64,000 nucleotides of DNA. It comes from Anaerolineales bacterium (GTDB taxonomy: Bacteria > Chloroflexota > Anaerolineae > Anaerolineales > UBA4823). Under the pieces are notes generated by a model. It was not told the DNA's origin. It did no database searches and worked only from the letters and a program-made list of their open reading frames with translations. The position numbers were made by a program, and so were the translations under genes. The DNA lies in NCBI GenBank assembly GCA_025057645.1, contig JANXBJ010000011.1, positions 24,028 to 88,027 of the forward strand, written 5' to 3'. Every line of letters starts with the position of its first letter. The first letter of the stretch is position 1. Of the stretch, positions 2,702 to 30,093 are shown piece by piece.

Positions 2702-4552
2702 ATGAGTGAGGAGCTGAACCTTATGGAGACTCAAGTAAGGGTAGAGCAGCAAGCCGTTATCACCGAGAAAATCGTCAACGATTTTTCGATCACGGTTGCA
2801 ACTGTCAATGGATCGGGTTCTCAAACCTCGAACGCTGCAATTTTGCGGGCTATCTTCAAGATGGGCATCCCTGTTTCGGGCAAGAATATCTTTCCCTCTA
2901 ACATTCAAGGCTTACCGACTTGGTATACCATTCGAGTGAACAAGGATGGGTTTGTAGCCCGAAAAGAGGAAGCGGACATCCTGATCGCCATGAACCCGGC
3001 CACTTTTAGCAAAGATTTGGCTTCGCTTAAGCCAGGGGGGGCCTTTTTCTACGCCGATGACATCCGCCTTCCCATCCCGCGGGACGATGTGGTGGTCTAC
3101 CCCATGCCGGTAAAGCAATTGATCCGCCAAGTGGAGATCCCCTCTTATCTAAGGGACTATGTGGCCAACATGGTGTATGTGGGGGTTTTAGCTCAAATGA
3201 TCGGCATTGAGCTCGAGAAGATTCGCCAGGCTCTCGAGTTCCACTTCAAGGGCAAGGCCAAGCCCGTGGAAATTAACTTTAGTGTGGTCTCACTGGCGGC
3301 GGAGTGGGCAAGGGAAAATCTTGAAAAAAGGGATCCTTACGTTTTAGAGCCAATGAAGGCCACAGAGGGGCTGATTCTTACTGACGGAAACACTGCTGCT
3401 GCTTTGGGAGCAATTTACGGGGGTGTCCAATTCGTTTCCTGGTACCCCATCACTCCCGCTACAAGTTTGGCCGAAAATTTGCAGCAGTATCTCCCCAAAT
3501 TGCGCAAGGACCCTGAGACAGGTAAAAACACCTTCGTGGTGGTTCAAGCGGAAGACGAGTCGGCAGCGATCGGGATGGCAGTTGGCGCGGGTTGGGGTGG
3601 TCTAAGAGCCATGAGCTCAACCTCGGGACCGGGCTTAAGCTTGATGACCGAGTACCTAGGTCTTGCTTATTTCGCGGAAGTGCCGGTGGTTGTGTGGGAT
3701 ATTCAGCGCGTTGGACCGAGCACAGGGCTGCCTACCCGCACAGCGCAGGGGGACTTGACCTTTGTCGCCTTTATGGGTCACGGGGATACCCAAAATATCA
3801 TTCTTATGCCCGGTTCCATCAATGAGTGTTTTGAATTTGCTTGGAAGGCCTTTGACCTGGCCGAACAGTTCCAAACCCCAGTGGTCGTGCTCTCCGACCT
3901 GGACTTTGGGATGAATCAGTGGATGGGTAAACCTTTTGAATACCCTGATAAGCCCATGAATCGTGGTAAGGTACTTTGGGAAGAAGATTTGGAGAAACTG
4001 GACGGCAAGTGGGCAAGGTATTTGGATGTTGACGGGGATGGCATTCCTTATCGCACCGTGATCGGAAACCGCCATCCGAGGGCGGCCTACTTCACTCGGG
4101 GAACAGGGCACGATGAATATGCCAATTACTCCGAAGACCCCCACCACTGGCATGCCCTGCTCAACCGCCTAAAGAAAAAATTTGAGACCCTAAAGCCATT
4201 CTTACCTCCACCCGTGGTGGAAACCATGGACGGTTCTAGGATTAATCTGGTGGCCTTTGGTTCGACTGAACCGGCGATCCAAGAGGCCAGAGCGCTCTTG
4301 CGGGCGCAGGGCATAGCTAGCGATTTTACGCGCATTCGGTCCTACCCGTTTACAGATCAGGTGAGCCAAATTTGCTCGGGCTATGATCGCAATTACGTCA
4401 TCGAGCTGAACCGAGATGGGCAGTTGCATCAGCTTCTGCGTATGCATTTCCCGGAGCTAGCGCCTAAATTAATCTCCTATGCCTATACGGATGGGTTACC
4501 TCTAACTGCGAAACAAGTCTATGAGTTTATTCTCTCAAAGGAGGGAGGATGA
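2702..4552 (+). CDS. korA: 2-oxoacid:ferredoxin oxidoreductase, alpha subunit
   Basis: 616 aa with a fused gamma/alpha layout ('GSGSQTSN', 'YPITPAT'). Immediately followed by an overlapping beta subunit gene. Confidence 0.85.
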   Translation: MSEELNLMETQVRVEQQAVITEKIVNDFSITVATVNGSGSQTSNAAILRAIFKMGIPVSGKNIFPSNIQGLPTWYTIRVNKDGFVARKEEADILIAMNPATFSKDLASLKPGGAFFYADDIRLPIPRDDVVVYPMPVKQLIRQVEIPSYLRDYVANMVYVGVLAQMIGIELEKIRQALEFHFKGKAKPVEINFSVVSLAAEWARENLEKRDPYVLEPMKATEGLILTDGNTAAALGAIYGGVQFVSWYPITPATSLAENLQQYLPKLRKDPETGKNTFVVVQAEDESAAIGMAVGAGWGGLRAMSSTSGPGLSLMTEYLGLAYFAEVPVVVWDIQRVGPSTGLPTRTAQGDLTFVAFMGHGDTQNIILMPGSINECFEFAWKAFDLAEQFQTPVVVLSDLDFGMNQWMGKPFEYPDKPMNRGKVLWEEDLEKLDGKWARYLDVDGDGIPYRTVIGNRHPRAAYFTRGTGHDEYANYSEDPHHWHALLNRLKKKFETLKPFLPPPVVETMDGSRINLVAFGSTEPAIQEARALLRAQGIASDFTRIRSYPFTDQVSQICSGYDRNYVIELNRDGQLHQLLRMHFPELAPKLISYAYTDGLPLTAKQVYEFILSKEGG

Positions 4553-5601
4553 GCGAGACAACAGCCTCCACAAACGTCAAGGTCGTGGTTAATGCAATCG
4601 GACTTACCAAAGCGGATTATCGCGGCAATCCTTCCACTCTTTGCCAAGGGTGCGGCCATAATTCGATTTCGAGTCAGATTATCGCAGCCTGTTACGAGTT
4701 GAACCTCTACCCTGAGGAGATTGTCAAGTTCAGCGGGATCGGATGTTCGAGCAAGAGCCCCTTTTATTTCCTCAGCCGGTCTTTTGGGTTCAATGGGTTG
4801 CACGGGCGGATGCCTTCTCTAGCCACTGGAGCTCTATTTGCCGACCATACGTTGCGTGGAATCGGGGTAAGCGGTGATGGTGACACGGCAAGCATTGGGA
4901 TGGGGCAGTTCAAGCACTTGCTGCGACGCAATATGCGTCTGGTGTACATTGTGGAAAATAACGGCGTATATGGTTTGACAAAGGGTCAATTTTCTGCAAC
5001 CGCCGATCGGGGTCTAGAGCTTAAGTCGCATGGCATTAATCCTTACATGCCGATCGACATCGCTTGGGAGGCACTGGTCGGACATGCAACCTTTGTGGCT
5101 CGCTCCTTTGCGGGTGATCCGAAGCAGGTAAAAGAGCTGATCAAAGCAGCGTTGAATCATAATGGAGTAGCAGTTCTGGATATCATTTCGCCCTGTGTAA
5201 CTTTTAACAATGTGGATCACTCCACCCACTCTTACGCATGGGGCAAGGATCACGAGACTGCCCTGCACGAGTTATCCTATGTTCCCAAAGCCGAAGAGAT
5301 TCTACTCGAATACGATGAGGGGGAGACACGCGAAGTACAATTGCACGATGGCTCGGTGATTATCCTCAAGAAACTAGGTCGGGACTACGACCCTACTAAC
5401 CGCGAGGCGGCTATTAAGGTGTTGGAAGAAGCGAATAGCTGTCAGTGTCTGATCACCGGCTTAATCTACATTGATCCCGATCAACCCTCGATGCTGGATA
5501 TCTACCAGTTAACGGAGACTCCATTGAATCGCTTGCGTGAAGATCAACTCCGACCACCTAAAGAGACGCTAGAAAGTCTCAATCGGATGTTTCAAGCCTG
5601 A
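4549..5601 (+). CDS. korB: 2-oxoacid:ferredoxin oxidoreductase, beta (TPP-binding) subunit
   Basis: 'CQGCGHNS' and 'GDGD' TPP motif. SD AGGAGG upstream; ATGA overlap with korA. Confidence 0.85.
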   Translation: MSETTASTNVKVVVNAIGLTKADYRGNPSTLCQGCGHNSISSQIIAACYELNLYPEEIVKFSGIGCSSKSPFYFLSRSFGFNGLHGRMPSLATGALFADHTLRGIGVSGDGDTASIGMGQFKHLLRRNMRLVYIVENNGVYGLTKGQFSATADRGLELKSHGINPYMPIDIAWEALVGHATFVARSFAGDPKQVKELIKAALNHNGVAVLDIISPCVTFNNVDHSTHSYAWGKDHETALHELSYVPKAEEILLEYDEGETREVQLHDGSVIILKKLGRDYDPTNREAAIKVLEEANSCQCLITGLIYIDPDQPSMLDIYQLTETPLNRLREDQLRPPKETLESLNRMFQA

Positions 5602-6491
5602 CGGACCTTGTGCCAGTAGCGGTAGAGCCCGGAGGCGCTCATCCATGTAGGGTTGAGATATGTAAAATAGGGTTGGTAGGCTTGAGGGAGTTGGTTGCGA
5701 CCTTGTTGGTCGAGCCAATGCCTCAGTGCCTCGGTTAGTTCTTCAAGCGAGGGGTTAGAGAGCATTTGCTGTTCCAACCATTCCTCGAGCAGGTCAAGCT
5801 TTATGAGCAACTGATTGAGGTGGTACTCTACGTCGGAATATACGCCAAAATGCGTGGGAGCGATTGCGCAAAGCTCTAGTTCCTGAAGGCGCCTAAGACT
5901 GGCGCGCCATTTGAGGGGGTCGAATTCAGGAGGAGGGGTGGGAAGCTCGATATGTTTCGTGTCCCCGATGCGAATGCCGCCAATGTCTCCCGCAAAGAGC
6001 GTCCCTTCGAAGAGAACCGTGTAGTGATGGTTAGCGTGTCCGGGGGTGTCGAGGACTTGGAACTTGTGACCATCGATGGAGAGGATTTCGTTGTCTTCTG
6101 GTATATGAAGATGGTCCTCCGGTACCGGTTTGATTTCTCCCCAGAGGGTATCCATAAGTTCACCGTAGATGCGGGAGGCGCTTTGGATCAGTTTTTCGGG
6201 GTTAACCAGATGGGGTGCACCCTTGGGGTGAACGTGGATAGTAGCACCTTGCCGGGCAAGCCATCCGACAGAGCCGGCATGATCGAGATGAATGTGCGTA
6301 ATGAAGACATCTTTCACGTCGGAAAGACTGATTCCGCAATCGGTGAGCGCTTTTTGTAGAGCTGGGATGGTTGTAGAAGGGCCTGGCTCAATTAGCACTG
6401 CTTGGTGAGGTAGGCGTATAAGGTAAGAGGCAATAGCTCCCGGATACCCAAAGAAATTGAGATCAATGGTGATAATTTGGGGAGAGGACAT
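5592..6491 (-). CDS. MBL-fold metallo-hydrolase
   Basis: 'THIHLDHAG' (HxHxDH). I prefer the start at 6491 (MSSPQII...), which has GGAG 8 nt upstream, over the longest ORF start at 6515. Confidence 0.75.
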   Translation of the reverse strand: MSSPQIITIDLNFFGYPGAIASYLIRLPHQAVLIEPGPSTTIPALQKALTDCGISLSDVKDVFITHIHLDHAGSVGWLARQGATIHVHPKGAPHLVNPEKLIQSASRIYGELMDTLWGEIKPVPEDHLHIPEDNEILSIDGHKFQVLDTPGHANHHYTVLFEGTLFAGDIGGIRIGDTKHIELPTPPPEFDPLKWRASLRRLQELELCAIAPTHFGVYSDVEYHLNQLLIKLDLLEEWLEQQMLSNPSLEELTEALRHWLDQQGRNQLPQAYQPYFTYLNPTWMSASGLYRYWHKVRQA

Positions 6492-6587
6492 CAGATCGCT
6501 CCGAATGCTTATCATCTTGAGATTTTGTTATCAAACCCCAATATATTGGGAAGTAGTGTTGGTTATCCCCATATATAGGGCTGATGC

Positions 6588-6616
6588 TTGACATTCCCTA
6601 TCATTTGTGGTAAAAT
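6588..6616 (+). promoter_or_regulatory. Sigma-70-type promoter with extended -10, upstream of the small peptide ORF
   Basis: TTGACA (6588-6593), a 17-nt spacer, then TGgTAAAAT with the -10 hexamer at 6611-6616. It lies in an AT-rich intergenic region. An AGGAGG SD precedes the ATG at 6669. Confidence 0.55.
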
Positions 6617-6668
6617 GGAGTAGATTATTCTACAATAATTATAATCCCTTTACTAGGAGGAAGGTAAA

Positions 6669-6884
6669 ATGACACTCGCCCAAGTTGTCTACCAGCTTTC
6701 TACTGACTCCGAGTTTGCTGCTCGGATGCGAACCGATCCGGAAGGCGCCTTGGCCGAAAAGGGACTCCAGCTTAGTAACGAAGAGAAGGCGTTCCTTGCC
6801 TATGGACTGCGGCGTTCTCTTCACGCCGATGGAAGCCCGGTTTCCATCCAAGAAGTTGCCTCCCTATATCTCGGATGGCGCTAA
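6669..6884 (+). CDS. 71-aa peptide, candidate pheromone/RiPP-like precursor (C-terminus ...ASLYLGWR)
   Basis: Strong SD (taggaggaaggtaaaATG) and promoter. The stop overlaps the downstream gene's ATG by 10 nt. The N-terminus 'DSEFAARMRTDPEGALAEKGLQLSNEE' is leader-like. Confidence 0.5.
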   Translation: MTLAQVVYQLSTDSEFAARMRTDPEGALAEKGLQLSNEEKAFLAYGLRRSLHADGSPVSIQEVASLYLGWR

Positions 6885-7918
6885 GCGAGATTGAGTCGCT
6901 TGCCGCCCGAGAAGTTGGCTTAATTTTTCAAGCGGTCCGTTCTTTTCTGAAAAAGTCTTCCATATCGCACAAATATAAAGATGCGCTATGGAAGACTTTT
7001 ATATCTCTCTCCCCGAGTCCGGGTAAGTTATCAAGGGGAAATTTTACGCTTCTTTTACCTCGTCTCTCTTATCAGGCTTGTGGAGGAGAGGGCGAGTTTG
7101 TATCGAAAATCAGCGCCGCCTGGTATTTATTTTACCTGGCAGCCGATATGATGGACAGCATTCAAGATCAGGAGAATAGGGATGAGGGAAGCATAATATC
7201 GGTCGCAGAGGGCCTCAATCTTGCTTCGGGATTTTTCTTTATCGCCAATGCCTTACTAACCGAAGTGCTGAAGACAAAAAACGACTTCCCTGCCCTCTAC
7301 GATGTGATTGGGGCGTTTCACACCCGACTGCTAGAAATGTGCGACGGACAACAACAGGATTTGTGTGCGAAGGAACTTTCACTAGAGGGTTACCTTGATA
7401 TGTTGCGCAAGAAATCCGGCGCATTTTTCTCGCTGGCTTGTTATATCGGGGCAAGGATGGCTTGTGGGAGGCCGGATTGGTGGAAACGTTTCTCGGATTT
7501 CGGTTCTCACTTGGGTGTTGTGATTCAAATCCTGGATGATTTGGAGGATTGGTATAAGTTGCAGGAACTGCAAAACAATGCACAGTCTGTTCTTCCCAAA
7601 ATGGACTGGTATAAAAACTTACCTGCTGTTTATGCGCTCGAAGTTTTACCCAGTAAGGAAAGAAGGGATTTTAGAAGAGCAATTGATAAGGTCGGAAAAG
7701 AGACAAGCGCAGTAAGCGATTACATTGGGTGGGTCAATCGCTCTGGTGCTGCGCTTTTCATCCTCGCATTGATCGGCCGCGAAGTCGGCTATGCAAAGGA
7801 GGCCTTAAGCGAAGAAGCCCTCGTTGCTCAGCCCAAGGAAGACTTGATTCGCATTCTGGAGCTGTTGGTGGGGAAATTGGGAGCTTGTTCAAACGACCCA
7901 ACTCAGCGCGCTCAGTAA
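6875..7918 (+). CDS. Polyprenyl-synthase-fold (isoprenoid synthase superfamily) protein, ComQ-like candidate
   Basis: 'GQQQDL' (GQxxDL), 'KKSGAFF' (KTAxL-like) and 'VIQILDDLED' (second Asp-rich DDxxD) are present. The first Asp-rich motif is atypical ('DMMDSIQD'). Confidence 0.7.
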   Translation: MALSEIESLAAREVGLIFQAVRSFLKKSSISHKYKDALWKTFISLSPSPGKLSRGNFTLLLPRLSYQACGGEGEFVSKISAAWYLFYLAADMMDSIQDQENRDEGSIISVAEGLNLASGFFFIANALLTEVLKTKNDFPALYDVIGAFHTRLLEMCDGQQQDLCAKELSLEGYLDMLRKKSGAFFSLACYIGARMACGRPDWWKRFSDFGSHLGVVIQILDDLEDWYKLQELQNNAQSVLPKMDWYKNLPAVYALEVLPSKERRDFRRAIDKVGKETSAVSDYIGWVNRSGAALFILALIGREVGYAKEALSEEALVAQPKEDLIRILELLVGKLGACSNDPTQRAQ

Positions 7919-7964
7919 AGACGGCACGTTTATTGCTCCCCGCTGGGTAGCTTAGCAAGCTAGG

Positions 7965-10802
7965 ATGAAATCTATTCAGCCTTTGCCGCAAATCAATCAG
8001 AGTCTTCCCTTCCTCATCGGGCTGGTGATCTTCGGAGTCATTATGTGGGTTGTCTTCTTGGTGCTCAAGTATCCCGATGATGGGATTCGTGCCCTCTCGG
8101 CGTCTCACCAAGTTCTTGCCGTTGATGAGCAGAGACCGGGAGGTAACCCCTTACAGGTAGGGGATATCCTGCTAGAAGTCGACGGCCAGCTGCTCTCCGG
8201 TCAAAGTGCATGGTATTGGGGAAAACGCCCCGGCGATTATGTCCGCTTTCGCATCCAGAGGGGAGAGAAGATCCTCTCCGTTGCACTTCAGTTGAGCACA
8301 CCGCAACCCTTAGAACTCTTTCGGAGACTCATACCTCTATCCGTCGCGCTGGTCTTTCTGTTCATTGCTCTTGCAGTTGAGGCATTCGCCCCCCGATCTC
8401 CCACGACAAAGATGTTTTTTGGGTTCTTTGTAGCTTCGAGCTTGTTGCTTACCTCAGGACAAGCCTCCGGACTCGGGCCTGTAATTGTGCTCGATTTGTA
8501 TTATTTTTTGTGGTGGATGGTCGGCCCGATCTCGGTACACTTTCATCTTTATTTTCCCCAACAGAGGAGCAGCCCTCAGATAAAGGGCGGCCTAATCCTC
8601 CTCTACGGAATCGGGTTGCTCGGGGGTTTGTTTCACTTAGGCATGGGAACGACGAGACTTCACGAACATGCCTACTTCAGTTTGCTCATTCCCATCTCTC
8701 GCCTGTTTTTGGCCCTATGTATGTTGTTAAACATCTGTTTACTATACTACAATTACCGCACTACGATTAGCCCTGCAGCCAAGGCAAAAATTCGTCTGAT
8801 TTTGCTAGGTGGAGTTTTGGCGGCTACTCCGTTGGTTACCACCTACCTTGTGCCAGAGGTGCTTCTTAATCGTCCGTTCTTGCCTGCATCGGCCATTTTT
8901 TTGTTTCTTTGCTCGCTGCCTTTGGTCTATGGATACGGGGTGTTTCGCTACCGTCTGATTGAAATCGAGCATCACATCAATCGCGGGGTTACCCTGTTAT
9001 TGGTGGTATTCATTTTAGTGGGCATTTACTCGGGGGTATTCTCTCTGGTGACTCGTTTCCTTCCGCGCCAGTACTTATTCGATCCCGCCCTAAATACCCT
9101 GATTATTCTGTTGCTTGCAGCGACCATTTTGCCTATTTCGCGTCGCGTGCAACGCTTTGTCGATACACTCTTTTATGGCGGTTGGTATGACTATCGTTCG
9201 GCTATCCTCCAAATTACGTCCGGTCTGGAGCAGGTCAATGACCTCTCCACTCTCGCCAGAGAAGTAACAAAGCGGTTGGTGAAAACCCTGAGAGTCGCCG
9301 ATGCTTGCATTTTCCTAAGCGACATTTATGGGGATCTTTCGGTGGTTGCGGTAGCACCTGAGGAAGCTGCCGATCAAGCAAACGGAAAGATGGATCGGGC
9401 AGTACTGCCCCGCAGTAGCTTAGAGTTTCTCTTGAAAGTCGGTGAGGAAGAGAGAGAGACGATTGCAAAGGCGCTGGCTCAGGCAAAGCTTTCGCCACAG
9501 GAGTTTCAATTGCTTCGCAGCCCGCAAGCCTATCTTTGGGTGCCAATTCTCAGTCATCAACAAGTGAAGGGCTTGATCGCCTTAGGACCAAAATACGGAG
9601 GGGACGTCTTCAGTGCTGAGGATATGGATATCCTGCGCGTTGTCTCCCGCAATCTCGGGCCTATAATTGAAAACATCCACTTGCTCAACCAGCTACGTCA
9701 ATATGCTGCGGATTTGGAGCTGCGTGTTCAGGAGCGGACGAGTGAATTATTTGAGGCCAAAAGGCGGGTCGAGGCGATTTTGGCGAGTGTGGGCGATGGT
9801 GTAGTGGTTACAAATCTGAGGGGAGAAATTGAGTTGACGAATCAGGCGATGGAAATCCAGACGTCTTACACTCAGGAGGAAATCCTACAGCGAAATTACT
9901 TTGATTGGTTGGCGCTGAGCAATTCTGTGGCAACAATCGAAGCAATCCAGATTTCTCTATCCAGAGGGGACGTGTGGAACGGAGAATTGGTTCACCAGAG
10001 AAAGAACGGGGAGCTCTACGACATTTTAGTGACCATTGCCCCTGTTCGGGATCAAAGCGGCGAAATCATAAACTATGTCGCTACGCAGCGTGACATTACC
10101 TACCGTAAGGAATTAGAGCGCTTGAAAGATATCTTCGTGGCCGATGTCTCTCATGAGCTGCGCACGCCCATCACGAATATTGCGCTCTATCTCGAGTTAC
10201 TTGAGACAGCACCCGAGTACAAAAGAGAGGAGTATATTCAAGTTCTCAAAGAGCAAAGCCGATTGTTGCGTCGCTTAATCGAAGATATCTTGGATTTATC
10301 CCGATTGGCGATTGGGAAGACCCGTAAAATCGAGTTCGAGCCAGTAGACTTGAACCTTCTCATAGAACAGGCTGTGATCGCTTACACCCCGGCTGTTGAG
10401 AAGGCCGGGCTAAAACTTCTCCTGGAAACCGTTCCCAGTGCGAAGGTGCGGGGAGAGCTCCATTACCTCTCACGCGCTCTCCAAAATCTGCTCGGAAATG
10501 CTATCCAGTACACCCCAAAAGGGTGGGTTAGGATAACAAGCCGGCGAGATGGAGAGTGGGTCTGCTTGGAAGTCCAAGACAGCGGCATCGGAATCCCCGA
10601 GGAGGACTTGCCCCATATTTTTGAGCGTTTCTATCGCGGCAAACTCGTGCGTCAGTCAAAAGTGCCCGGTACCGGTTTAGGGTTGGCTATTGTGAAGGAA
10701 ATTGTAGAGCTTCATAACGGTCAGATCGAGGTGGAAAGTGAGGTGGGAAGAGGGAGTGTGTTCCGGATTTATCTACCAGCCTGGATCGATGGAGATCGTT
10801 GA
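7965..10802 (+). CDS. Polytopic (~10 TM) sensor histidine kinase with a PDZ-like outer loop, then GAF-like, PAS, HisKA and HATPase_c regions
   Basis: H-box 'VADVSHELRTPIT', N-box 'LLGNAIQYT', G-boxes 'DSGIGI' and 'GTGLGLAIV'. About 10 hydrophobic segments lie in aa 15-400. The PDZ-like stretch is 'LQVGDILLEVDGQLL...PGDYVRFRIQRGEK'. Confidence 0.85.
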   Translation: MKSIQPLPQINQSLPFLIGLVIFGVIMWVVFLVLKYPDDGIRALSASHQVLAVDEQRPGGNPLQVGDILLEVDGQLLSGQSAWYWGKRPGDYVRFRIQRGEKILSVALQLSTPQPLELFRRLIPLSVALVFLFIALAVEAFAPRSPTTKMFFGFFVASSLLLTSGQASGLGPVIVLDLYYFLWWMVGPISVHFHLYFPQQRSSPQIKGGLILLYGIGLLGGLFHLGMGTTRLHEHAYFSLLIPISRLFLALCMLLNICLLYYNYRTTISPAAKAKIRLILLGGVLAATPLVTTYLVPEVLLNRPFLPASAIFLFLCSLPLVYGYGVFRYRLIEIEHHINRGVTLLLVVFILVGIYSGVFSLVTRFLPRQYLFDPALNTLIILLLAATILPISRRVQRFVDTLFYGGWYDYRSAILQITSGLEQVNDLSTLAREVTKRLVKTLRVADACIFLSDIYGDLSVVAVAPEEAADQANGKMDRAVLPRSSLEFLLKVGEEERETIAKALAQAKLSPQEFQLLRSPQAYLWVPILSHQQVKGLIALGPKYGGDVFSAEDMDILRVVSRNLGPIIENIHLLNQLRQYAADLELRVQERTSELFEAKRRVEAILASVGDGVVVTNLRGEIELTNQAMEIQTSYTQEEILQRNYFDWLALSNSVATIEAIQISLSRGDVWNGELVHQRKNGELYDILVTIAPVRDQSGEIINYVATQRDITYRKELERLKDIFVADVSHELRTPITNIALYLELLETAPEYKREEYIQVLKEQSRLLRRLIEDILDLSRLAIGKTRKIEFEPVDLNLLIEQAVIAYTPAVEKAGLKLLLETVPSAKVRGELHYLSRALQNLLGNAIQYTPKGWVRITSRRDGEWVCLEVQDSGIGIPEEDLPHIFERFYRGKLVRQSKVPGTGLGLAIVKEIVELHNGQIEVESEVGRGSVFRIYLPAWIDGDR

Positions 10803-11632
10803 TGTCTATGGTTCATCGCATTTACACCGTTTCGGATGCATCTGGTGCCACCGCCGAGCGCGTCGTCAAGGCCGCCTTGCTTCAGTTTGATGCAGTGAAC
10901 GTCGAGGTCATTCGGATCGGGGAAATCCGCACCAAGGAGCAAGTCTGTCAGATTATCGCTGAGGCAGCTGCGAACAAGGGAATTATCGTGCATACCCTCG
11001 TTTCTGAAGAGCTAAGACACTTGATGGTGACCGAAGGACGCGCAATGGATGTAGTTACCATCGACATCATGGGCCCTTTGCTGGTGCGCTTGTCTGACAT
11101 GTTTGCGCTAAAGCCCAAAGGAATTCCGGGGGGAATGACCCCTTTTGACCGAGGTTATTTAGAACGCATAGAAGCCATTGATTATACGGTGCGACACGAT
11201 GATGGCAAAAATCCACACGAATTACATCAAGCTGAGATCGTTTTGGTGGGGGTCTCGCGGACGTCCAAGACACCGCTGAGCTTTTACCTTGCCTATCGAG
11301 GGTGGAAGGTGGCGAATGTTCCGATTGTCTTAGGGATCGAGCCTCCTAAGGAGCTTTTTGAACTGCCTAAGCACCGTGTCGTGGGCTTGACCATCCGTCC
11401 GGAGCGCTTGGCCGAGCTGCGTCGCTCACGAGTGGAGCGCTTAGGCACTCTTCCGGCCGGGTATGCAGACCTAAGTTATATTCAACAAGAGCTCGCTTAC
11501 GCTTATGAGATTTTTGACCGCCGCAGGGACTGGCCACTGGTCGATGTCTCGGTCAAGCCGATCGAGGAAACCGCTTCTGAAGTGCTATCGCTGCTTGGGA
11601 AATCTCTGCAACGTTTTGAAGTGCACGAGTAA
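10802..11632 (+). CDS. PpsR/PDRP-type bifunctional kinase/pyrophosphorylase (DUF299; PEP synthase / PPDK regulatory protein family)
   Basis: P-loop 'LVGVSRTSKTPLSFYLA' and about 275 aa in length. The ATG shares one nt with the kinase stop (TGATG). Confidence 0.8.
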   Translation: MSMVHRIYTVSDASGATAERVVKAALLQFDAVNVEVIRIGEIRTKEQVCQIIAEAAANKGIIVHTLVSEELRHLMVTEGRAMDVVTIDIMGPLLVRLSDMFALKPKGIPGGMTPFDRGYLERIEAIDYTVRHDDGKNPHELHQAEIVLVGVSRTSKTPLSFYLAYRGWKVANVPIVLGIEPPKELFELPKHRVVGLTIRPERLAELRRSRVERLGTLPAGYADLSYIQQELAYAYEIFDRRRDWPLVDVSVKPIEETASEVLSLLGKSLQRFEVHE

Positions 11633-24196: not shown

Positions 24197-24282
24197 TGGG
24201 GCGGGTGGGAGTCGAACCCACAAGGAGTGTCACCTCCGGAGGATTTTAAGTCCCCTGCGTCTGCCAATTCCGCCACCGCCCC
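24197..24282 (-). tRNA. tRNA-Leu (anticodon UAA), long variable arm
   Basis: The reverse complement reads GGGGCGG-TG-GCGGAATTGGCAGACGC...GGGGA-CTTAAAA-TCCTC...GTGGGTTCGACTCCCAC-CCGCCCC-A. It has a 7-bp acceptor stem, a T-loop TTCGA and a class II variable arm. CCA is not encoded. Confidence 0.9.
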
Positions 24283-30019: not shown

Positions 30020-30093
30020 GGGCGGATAGCTCAGTTGGTTAGAGCGCCTCTCTTACACAGAGGAGGTCGGGGGTTCGAGTCCCTTTCCGCCCA
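30020..30093 (+). tRNA. tRNA-Val (anticodon UAC)
   Basis: GGGCGGA-TA-GCTCAGTTGGTTAGAGC-G-CCTCT-CTTACAC-AGAGG-...-TTCGAGT-...-TCCGCCC-A cloverleaf. CCA is not encoded. Confidence 0.9.

Follow-up and report, generated by a model that had tools for sequence, protein, structure and literature searches.

The stretch of DNA analysed here, called the window throughout, comprises 64,000 nt from the assembly of an Anaerolineales bacterium (GCA_025057645.1, contig JANXBJ010000011.1, positions 24,028-88,027, forward strand). On its forward strand lie, one after the other, genes for a 71-residue peptide, a 347-residue enzyme with a trans-isoprenyl diphosphate synthase (trans-IDS) fold and a 945-residue sensor histidine kinase (Table 1), and we consider it probable, judging from the sequence comparisons described below, that the three genes form an operon which yields a ribosomal peptide prenylated on tryptophan and includes a membrane kinase as its most likely sensor. 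What has been computed for the locus is the anatomy of its genes, the families and fold of their products, and their conservation and linkage. An earlier note on this DNA had described the three open reading frames (ORFs), the first ending in ...ASLYLGWR, with a 10-nt overlap before the second and a 46-nt gap before the third, and had compared them to the ComX, ComQ and ComP components of Bacillus quorum sensing; all of these coordinates hold, the overlap being that of the precursor stop with the enzyme ATG (6875-6877). The promoter and the strong Shine-Dalgarno sequence that it had placed before the first ORF are likewise there. The total number of promoter-like sites in 6400-11000 is not above the shuffled expectation, however, so we regard the promoter as a consensus match only. 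Inside the sequence GGATGG, the enzyme start is overlapped by the codon for Trp70 (TGG, 6876-6878), and the same 10-nt overlap was found again in all close relatives whose peptides end in GWR.

Table 1. Features of the module and of its surroundings, in window coordinates.
Feature	Position	Strand	Basis
Sigma-70-like promoter, TTGACA-17 nt-TAAAAT, extended -10 TG	6588-6616	+	11/12 consensus matches; top site within 6400-11000
Shine-Dalgarno sequence AGGAGG	6655-6660	+	8 nt 5' of precursor ATG; read from sequence
Precursor peptide gene, 71 aa, NHLP-clan (Os1348 family) precursor of a ribosomally made peptide that is modified after translation (RiPP)	6669-6884	+	NF038399 match; ORF matching the leader hidden Markov model (HMM) 5' of enzyme in 68/69 loci
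Leader domain, residues 1-49, MTLAQVVYQLSTDSEFAARMRTDPEGALAEKGLQLSNEEKAFLAYGLRR	6669-6815	+	Column information; hhalign to PalX leader
Variable core/tail, residues 50-71, ending ...ASLYLGWR	6816-6881	+	Variable sequence apart from Trp
Trp70 codon TGG, predicted prenyl acceptor	6876-6878	+	Invariant column, 4.32 bits
Trans-IDS-fold enzyme, 347 aa, predicted Trp prenyltransferase	6875-7918	+	PF00348, AlphaFold2 (AF2) fold, family profile
Sensor histidine kinase, 945 aa, orphan within window	7965-10802	+	Pfam domains; homologous sensor 3' of enzyme in 53/57 loci
Putative PDZ-like domain, extracytoplasmic, kinase residues 35-113, between transmembrane helices TM1 and TM2	8067-8303	+	PDZ_2, AF2, Foldseek
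Kinase TM2-TM10 bundle with juxtamembrane FYGGWYDY (residues 403-410, 9171-9194)	8307-9194	+	Hydropathy, AF2, alignment
Kinase GAF (426-569) and PAS (601-715), cytoplasmic	9240-10109	+	Pfam
Kinase HisKA (721-781; His730 at 10152-10154) and HATPase_c (835-939)	10125-10781	+	Pfam
Metallo-beta-lactamase (MBL)-fold hydrolase, 307 aa, divergent conserved neighbour, possible accessory gene	5592-6515	-	PF00753, 83 bits
2-oxoacid:ferredoxin oxidoreductase subunits, 5' of module	2702-5601	+	
Phosphoenolpyruvate (PEP)-synthase regulatory kinase/pyrophosphorylase (Kinase-PPPase, PF03618); start overlaps kinase stop	10799-11632	+	
Two tRNA genes	24197-24282; 30020-30093	-; +	Rfam

The product of the first gene, MTLAQVVYQLSTDSEFAARMRTDPEGALAEKGLQLSNEEKAFLAYGLRRSLHADGSPVSIQEVASLYLGWR, is annotated by NCBI as a hypothetical protein of an Anaerolineales metagenome-assembled genome. 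It matched the NCBIfam model NF038399 (Os1348 family, NHLP clan) over profile positions 3-44 of 63 with 39.2 bits (E 5.6e-10; cutoff 40), and the same model was matched at E<=0.001 by all 23 aligned homologues of the precursor. Its score against the canonical NHLP model, TIGR03793, was 12.5 bits (cutoff 50.9), and the core of its leader aligned with the leader of PalX, a precursor from Paenibacillus alvei to which we return below, at an hhalign E of 1.3e-4. Against Pfam at E<=1, a weak match to Frankia_peptide was the only one, and PF05952 (ComX) did not appear. Conservation is distributed unevenly along the peptide, with a mean column information of 3.16 bits in the leader (match columns 1-47) versus 1.9 bits in the tail, where the Trp is the sole invariant residue and reaches the maximum of 4.32 bits. 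Of the 69 distinct peptides of the family, 68 carry this Trp among their three C-terminal residues (at -1 in 4, at -2 in 43 and at -3 in 21), and the residue that follows it is usually basic. By its sequence, the small ORF is recognisable as a probable NHLP-clan RiPP precursor; the earlier note, which had seen in it a Trp-terminal peptide, was right about the Trp and missed the likely NHLP-clan leader. When a second precursor was sought across the 64-kb window, as an ORF matching the leader HMM, none was found besides 6669-6884.

The linkage of the three genes was surveyed with peptide and enzyme HMMs over 86 loci, made up of the window, five contigs reached via identical proteins and 80 metagenome loci, with the upstream count limited to loci with at least 300 nt 5' of the enzyme and the kinase count to those with at least 700 nt 3' of it. 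In 68 of 69 loci the gene directly 5' of the enzyme, transcribed in the same direction, is a leader-positive ORF, and such an ORF was never found downstream of the enzyme; a kinase homologous to the window kinase over its N-terminal 420 residues follows the enzyme in 53 of 57, which bears out the co-occurrence across relatives on which the earlier reading hung. The order peptide-enzyme-kinase recurs in dozens of loci and in at least three unrelated flanking contexts, so that the arrangement goes far beyond chance. Moreover, a leader-like domain with a ...G-x-W... motif is fused to the N-terminus of the enzyme in five of 144 family representatives (P0136, P0140, P0174, P0178 and P0193), and these natural fusions point, in the manner of a Rosetta stone, to a joint function of peptide and enzyme.

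The enzyme itself matches PF00348 with 61.6 bits (E 8.7e-17) and carries the polyprenyl-synthase hallmarks that the earlier note had picked out (GQxxDL, KxxGxxF and DDLED), here G158-Q159-x-x-D162-L, K179-x-x-G182-x-x-F185 and D221-D222-L-E-D225, in addition to D94-S95-x-x-D98, which resembles the first motif rich in aspartate (FARM), and to the further key residues K180 and Q218. Its AF2 model (predicted local distance difference test score, pLDDT, 90.8) has an all-alpha trans-IDS fold, and a Foldseek search with this model returned trans-IDS structures and the indole/tryptophan farnesyltransferase Ord1 at TM-scores of 0.7-0.8, the top matches being octaprenyl and geranylgeranyl diphosphate (GGPP) synthases. 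A 25-sequence alignment of the family shows no variation at D94, D98, G158, Q159, K180, Q218 or D222 and hardly any at D221; not conserved are GGKRxR, the second Asp of the FARM, the RRG that follows it and the GK motif located after the second motif rich in aspartate (SARM).

An ordinary chain-elongating polyprenyl diphosphate synthase, with the small ORF and the kinase as unrelated neighbours, would account for the PF00348 match, for the top Foldseek matches and for the annotations given by NCBI and JGI (polyprenyl synthetase, GGPP synthase). However, none of the NCBIfam IDS equivalog models reached its cutoff with the enzyme (top score 59 bits, cutoffs 275-600), the motifs for binding isopentenyl diphosphate (IPP) are lost, and in a word-indexed homologue search a wide gap separates the remotest member of the family, with an E-value of 1e-22, from the first canonical synthase, with 2.8e-5. 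The linkage to the peptide and the fusions speak against it as well, and we regard this explanation as so improbable that it hardly needs to be carried further. The housekeeping-synthase identity, in which the earlier note had seen the undoing of its own proposal, was accordingly rejected on equivalog scores, lost motifs and peptide linkage. When the family profile was run against all PDB sequences, Ord1 came first (E 7.7e-22, profile positions 61-310), ahead of every chain-elongating synthase.

We favour prenylation of the precursor Trp because of the linkage of enzyme to peptide and kinase, the invariant Trp, the loss of the IPP-condensation motifs, the position of Ord1 as the best PDB profile match and the fusions; the enzyme most likely lipidates this residue. 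The same comparative evidence lends strong support to the ComX/ComQ/ComP-like trio of the earlier note, whose companion claim, that equivalents were lacking, did not survive, as set out below.

The family to which the enzyme belongs is large, with at least 510 clusters (50% identity) at E<=1e-30 in a profile search over 1.84 billion representatives, the top 150 all scoring at least 225 bits; its Anaerolineales label rests on the members named by NCBI. In 18 of about 187 family representatives, including P0032 and the fused P0193, Q-x-x-N-D (a pseudo-SARM) stands in place of Q-x-x-D-D, and the family therefore spans both active-site types. Its members are named at source 'geranylgeranyl pyrophosphate synthase', 'polyprenyl synthetase family protein' or hypothetical protein. 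The NCBI model of the window enzyme (P0001) has 256 residues, starts at Met92 and is 91 residues shorter than the homologues; we adopt the 347-residue form starting at 6875 because the homologues and the AF2 model support it, the deposited model being without the first three helices. As a practical consequence, the NCBI model is to be read as truncated and misnamed. No second IDS-like gene was found in the 64-kb window.

The third gene encodes a kinase with ten transmembrane helices, by hydropathy as well as in the AF2 model, which agrees with the approximate count given in the earlier note. Pfam assigns it GAF, PAS, HisKA (PF00512, not HisKA_3) and HATPase_c domains, with an H-box SHELRTP that includes His730. 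Its residues 35-113 are beta-rich in the AF2 model (pLDDT about 70-90) and match PDZ_2 of Pfam at E 4e-4 and 21 bits, below the cutoff; in a Foldseek search, with the whole 420-aa sensor model as the query, the region resembled the PDZ domains of HtrA, DegS, DegP, RseP and MucP at E-values of 0.03-0.2 (e.g., 7l71, TMt 0.64, root-mean-square deviation 3.0, prob 1.0). Since the protein has ten transmembrane helices and the GAF, PAS and kinase domains are cytoplasmic, we infer that the PDZ-like domain faces outward. PDZ domains of the HtrA/DegS/RseP type bind peptide C-termini, and the model suggests that this one could plausibly read a C-terminal lipopeptide. After the last transmembrane helix, the sequence FYGGWYDY stands unchanged in each of the 15 sensor homologues aligned, the HisKA_3 branch included.

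This branch is represented by the fused loci L091 and L092, where the next genes encode a HisKA_3 kinase with the same sensor (194 bits) and a regulator with receiver (REC) and GerE domains, i.e., an output of the ComP/ComA type. As these loci keep the sensor and have a different core and output, it is the sensor rather than the kinase core that tracks the enzyme. Elsewhere, a REC-HD-GYP regulator (motif HHERWDGSGYP, conforming to HHExxDGxGYP; PF13487, 150 bits) is encoded right after the kinase in 11 of the 26 loci that have a complete kinase and enough downstream DNA, and from this gene order the module may originally have had turnover of cyclic di-GMP (c-di-GMP) as its output. Such genes were seen at L005 (9806-10801) and also at L035, L041, L042, L044, L058, L060, L071, L074, L076, L085 and L086. 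At L078 (2309-4592) the enzyme is followed by a REC-HD-GYP gene with no kinase between them, and L017, L081 and L088, for all that their downstream DNA is long enough, are also without a kinase. The window and its closest relatives are without the REC-HD-GYP gene, and the gene for the PEP-synthase regulatory protein follows the kinase instead; CheY and REC-HD-GYP probes found no receiver domain in the whole 64-kb window. In RpfC/RpfG-type signalling, the response regulator is of the HD-GYP type and the signal is a fatty acid. The predicted path from a cell-cell signal through a kinase to c-di-GMP turnover would be alike here, a likeness that applies to the 11 of 26 relatives by gene order alone and not to the window, which has no such regulator.

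The earlier note had taken ComQ for the only peptide prenyltransferase of the polyprenyl-synthase fold and had known of no described equivalent of the trio. Neither statement can be upheld: the literature also has PalQ, the ChrPC P domain and StheQ (PMC10853753, PMC13290415, bioRxiv 10.64898/2026.08.29.745113), and PalP/PalX/PalQ, with the same three parts, as well as StheQ/StheX exist as counterparts. In P. alvei, PalP is a kinase, PalX an NHLP precursor ending in Trp and PalQ a Trp C3 prenyltransferase of the isoprenoid-synthase superfamily (Miyata et al. 2023, PMC10853753). The window module resembles this system in its probable NHLP-clan precursor with a Trp at the C-terminal end, its predicted Trp prenyltransferase of the trans-IDS superfamily, its adjacent HisKA membrane kinase and its lack of an adjacent regulator, and both enzymes carry Q-x-x-D-D-x-x-D. 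The two differ in that PalX has the canonical NHLP leader (TIGR03793, 64 bits), whereas the window peptide belongs to the shorter Os1348 family; PalQ, unlike the window enzyme, has no Pfam match (no PF00348); PalP, of 653 aa, is convergently oriented and has an unrelated sensor, such that its kinase core alone aligns with the window kinase; and PalPXQ comes from Bacillota, the window module from Chloroflexota. Membership of the window enzyme in the PalQ cluster was considered and rejected, the hhalign match being marginal and local. In the public assembly of P. alvei DSM 29, palX (L006 2271-2558) contains a run of five T and reads ...DNVRRFSGNPFFLPRKWASLSFS up to the stop, while the published PalX (80 aa, ...DNVRRFFW before the stop) needs six T; either the assembly has a homopolymer error or the cloned gene differs from it.

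Within the Chloroflexota, Sphaerobacter thermophilus encodes StheX, a 69-aa peptide with an ordered N-domain and a disordered tail, and StheQ, which farnesylates the Trp of StheX (second from the C-terminus) in vitro; crystal structures were solved as well (bioRxiv 10.64898/2026.08.29.745113, 31 August 2026). The StheQ active site comprises D85/D89, K174, Q212, N215, D216 and D219, with a single Mg2+ at the first Asp motif; a kinase is not mentioned in the preprint, which gives the biological role as unknown (bioRxiv 10.64898/2026.08.29.745113). The window precursor is of similar length (71 aa), has a conserved leader where StheX has its ordered domain, likewise carries its Trp at -2 and is encoded adjacent to its enzyme. 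The enzymes share the all-alpha trans-IDS fold, an Asp pair at i/i+4, the Lys and, three residues ahead of the second motif, a Gln, and the spacing of K174-Q212-N215-D216-D219 equals that of K180-Q218-D221-D222-D225 (38 residues from Lys to Gln), as compared by published residue numbers alone. They differ at both Asp motifs: StheQ has a pseudo-SARM (N215-D216) and a first motif DDxxD, the window enzyme D221-D222 and D94-S95-x-x-D98. The gene order differs too, with Q before X in Sphaerobacter and X before Q without exception in the 68 loci of the window family. StheQ and StheX were not among the retrieved homologues, none of the retrieved proteins matched the residue numbering of StheQ, and no StheX-like tail occurs among the ORFs of the 86 loci.

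Resemblance to the ComQXPA system of Bacillus subtilis and other Firmicutes is likewise partial. A 2014 census of ComQXPA, which found no loci outside Firmicutes, defined ComQ as a single-domain PF00348 protein, ComX by PF05952, 52-73 aa and a Trp near the C-terminus, the order as comQ-comX-comP-comA on one strand, ComP by TM helices, HisKA_3 (PF07730) and HATPase_c, and ComA as an adjacent regulator with REC and GerE (PMC4008528). Of these five features, PF00348 is found at the window, and PF05952, the gene order, HisKA_3 and an adjacent ComA are not, although the peptide fits ComX in its length (71 aa) and in its Trp at -2, and the kinase has TM helices and HATPase_c. The likeness consists of a PF00348-type enzyme beside a Trp-tailed precursor of 50-75 aa, a polytopic kinase on the same strand, overlapping genes and a variable tail like that of ComX. 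The three departures from Bacillus that the earlier note had listed are right for this window: its order is X-Q-P without A, as opposed to Q-X-P-A; its kinase is of the HisKA type, with PDZ, GAF and PAS domains, as opposed to the HisKA_3 of ComP, a HisKA_3 version with the same sensor occurring in the side branch; and no ComA-type regulator is adjacent, relatives often having REC-HD-GYP instead. The enzymes, moreover, are each other's reverse, the first motif being intact and the second degenerate in ComQ. Most likely, from these comparisons, the module works like ComQXP, PalPXQ and StheQX, with each component drawn from a family other than the Bacillus and Paenibacillus ones.

Ord1 (PDB 9V4G-J) is an all-alpha indole/tryptophan farnesyltransferase in which a single Mg2+ is held by D85/D89 (i, i+4) and activity depends on Q216/D219 (PMC12510300). 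The window enzyme has the same fold, the same D(i)/D(i+4) pair and the Q-x-x-D constellation probed by mutagenesis in Ord1, and of the traits that mark trans-IDS-like indole/Trp prenyltransferases (ComQ, PalQ, ChrPC-P, StheQ, Ord1) it has the fold, an Asp pair at i/i+4 (D94/D98) and a Gln one helical turn ahead of the second motif (Q218-x-x-D221), activity on an indole being a prediction. The Ord1 substrate is a free small-molecule indole of indolosesquiterpene biosynthesis, and neither a precursor peptide nor a kinase goes with that enzyme. By this precedent, the small protein could be a regulatory or scaffolding partner, and the enzyme could prenylate a small molecule (free indole or tryptophan), as Ord1 does. 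The rank of Ord1 in the profile search would fit such a role, as would the fusion loci (L089-L092), in which the Trp is embedded in the chain and it is hard to see how a peptide would be released. Yet 68 of 69 peptides have a flexible tail with a free C-terminus and the invariant Trp at -1 to -3, which is how a substrate looks, and StheX and PalX, with the same layout, are proven substrates; we therefore give a scaffolding role very little chance of being correct.

For the peptide as substrate, the mechanism could run as follows. The NHLP-clan leader (about residues 1-49, folded) would dock on the enzyme, leaving a flexible tail that ends in G-W70-R. The enzyme, without the IPP-condensing residues, would bind an allylic diphosphate, probably geranyl diphosphate or farnesyl diphosphate, via Mg2+ held by D94/D98 together with K180, while Q218, D221 and D222 would place the indole of Trp70, to which the prenyl group would be transferred, probably at C3 with closure of a pyrroloindoline ring, by analogy with ComQ, PalQ and StheQ. 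A protease would then cut off the leader, and the lipopeptide would exit the cell or enter the membrane. The co-transcribed kinase may detect it via the PDZ domain, the ten-helix bundle or both, and would then autophosphorylate on His730. In many relatives the signal could pass to the next gene product, the REC-HD-GYP regulator (c-di-GMP phosphodiesterase type); for this window, the partner regulator would be encoded elsewhere. Prenyl transfer, with its site and chain length, processing, export and the role of the peptide as kinase ligand are the steps that we infer.

Several observations weigh against a Trp-prenylated peptide sensed by the neighbouring kinase, some of them concerning the chemistry. 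The Q-x-x-D-D context is also found in canonical synthases and so does not discriminate alone, and the second motif is a complete DDxxD in the window enzyme but a pseudo-SARM (ND...) in ComQ and in StheQ. The 25-sequence enzyme family aligned with PalQ at an hhalign E of 0.013 (probability 3%) over 61 columns around the SARM. Furthermore, PalQ needs Trp as the last residue, and a C-terminal extension abolishes its activity (PMC10853753); in the window Trp70 is followed by Arg71, and in the family the Trp is last in just 4 of 69 peptides. The enzyme might modify the precursor otherwise than by Trp C3 prenylation, at another indole position or residue, or by prenylation coupled to cyclisation as in ChrPC. 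Beyond the full second motif, such an outcome would be in keeping with the usually basic residue after the Trp, with the position-dependent regiochemistry of PalQ and with the ChrPC fusion, which couples prenylation to terpene cyclisation (PMC13290415). Against it, the trans-IDS-like peptide prenyltransferases characterised so far all act on Trp (PMC13290415), the Trp is the only invariant residue of the tail, and neither a cyclase domain nor a second tailoring enzyme is conserved in the operon. A different modification thus seems to us improbable, and C3 prenylation of Trp70 the better prediction.

Other observations concern signalling. The kinase is missing in 4 of 57 loci, and no protease, exporter or response regulator lies within the 64-kb window. 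The PDZ assignment rests on a model of medium confidence (pLDDT 69.6) together with a sub-threshold Pfam match. In addition, the same PDZ/polytopic sensor occurs in HisKA_3 kinases with GerE regulators at L007 (2319-4499) and L008 (2812-5016) with no precursor or enzyme nearby, so that the sensor family extends beyond the prenylation module. It could be, then, that the peptide is prenylated and that its product is not a signal for the adjacent kinase but a lipopeptide with antimicrobial or surface activity, or a factor anchored in the membrane, with the kinase regulating its production or reading an unrelated cue. The missing regulator, exporter and protease and the free-standing sensors at L007/L008 would agree with this, as would the cytoplasmic GAF and PAS inputs of the kinase, the large nonribosomal peptide synthetase that adjoins the fused enzyme at L089 and the finding that prenylation enhances antimicrobial peptides (PMC13290415). 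Set against these are the kinase following the enzyme in all but four of the loci counted, and the sensor staying linked though core and output differ (HisKA with HD-GYP versus HisKA_3 with GerE); immunity or transport genes are not conserved, and the precursor gene is single and encodes a short tail, which recalls ComX. On balance we find a non-signalling product rather unlikely, and retain the lipopeptide as the probable ligand of the kinase.

As to the surroundings, a homologue of the MBL-fold protein occupies the same divergent position in 27 of the 38 loci with enough upstream DNA, including otherwise different contexts. The protein matched no specific NCBIfam family and may be an accessory factor for processing, signal turnover or nucleotide hydrolysis. 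None of the housekeeping neighbours of the window module is conserved with it beyond the closest relatives, and an Rfam scan of the window returned just the two tRNAs, both distant from the locus.

Trp prenylation of a small precursor by a trans-IDS-like enzyme is already known and has been shown once in Chloroflexota, with StheQ/StheX. The size of the clade, its Os1348-type leader, the almost constant pairing with a PDZ/10-TM kinase, the neighbouring HD-GYP and MBL-fold genes and the natural fusions of leader and enzyme are not described in the literature searched. Tentatively, and with more doubt than we attach to the operon itself, the family may represent a widespread and previously unrecognised form of quorum sensing in Anaerolineales and other Chloroflexota, in which a prenylated NHLP-derived pheromone would be perceived through its lipidated tail by the PDZ and ten-helix sensor of the kinase and relayed to REC-HD-GYP-mediated c-di-GMP turnover (or, in the side branch, to GerE-mediated transcription), the MBL-fold hydrolase serving in processing or turnover.

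The family offers many new predicted Trp prenyltransferases that would allow one or two residues after the Trp, which PalQ, in use for peptide lipidation, does not. Trp-prenylated peptide pheromones have long been held to be limited to Bacillus and other Firmicutes. Sludge, sediments and hot-spring mats harbour filamentous Chloroflexota in abundance, and to our knowledge next to nothing is known of how these bacteria signal from cell to cell. The wiring of a precursor, its enzyme and a dedicated kinase, as predicted here, would make this module a concrete candidate for peptide quorum sensing in these bacteria.

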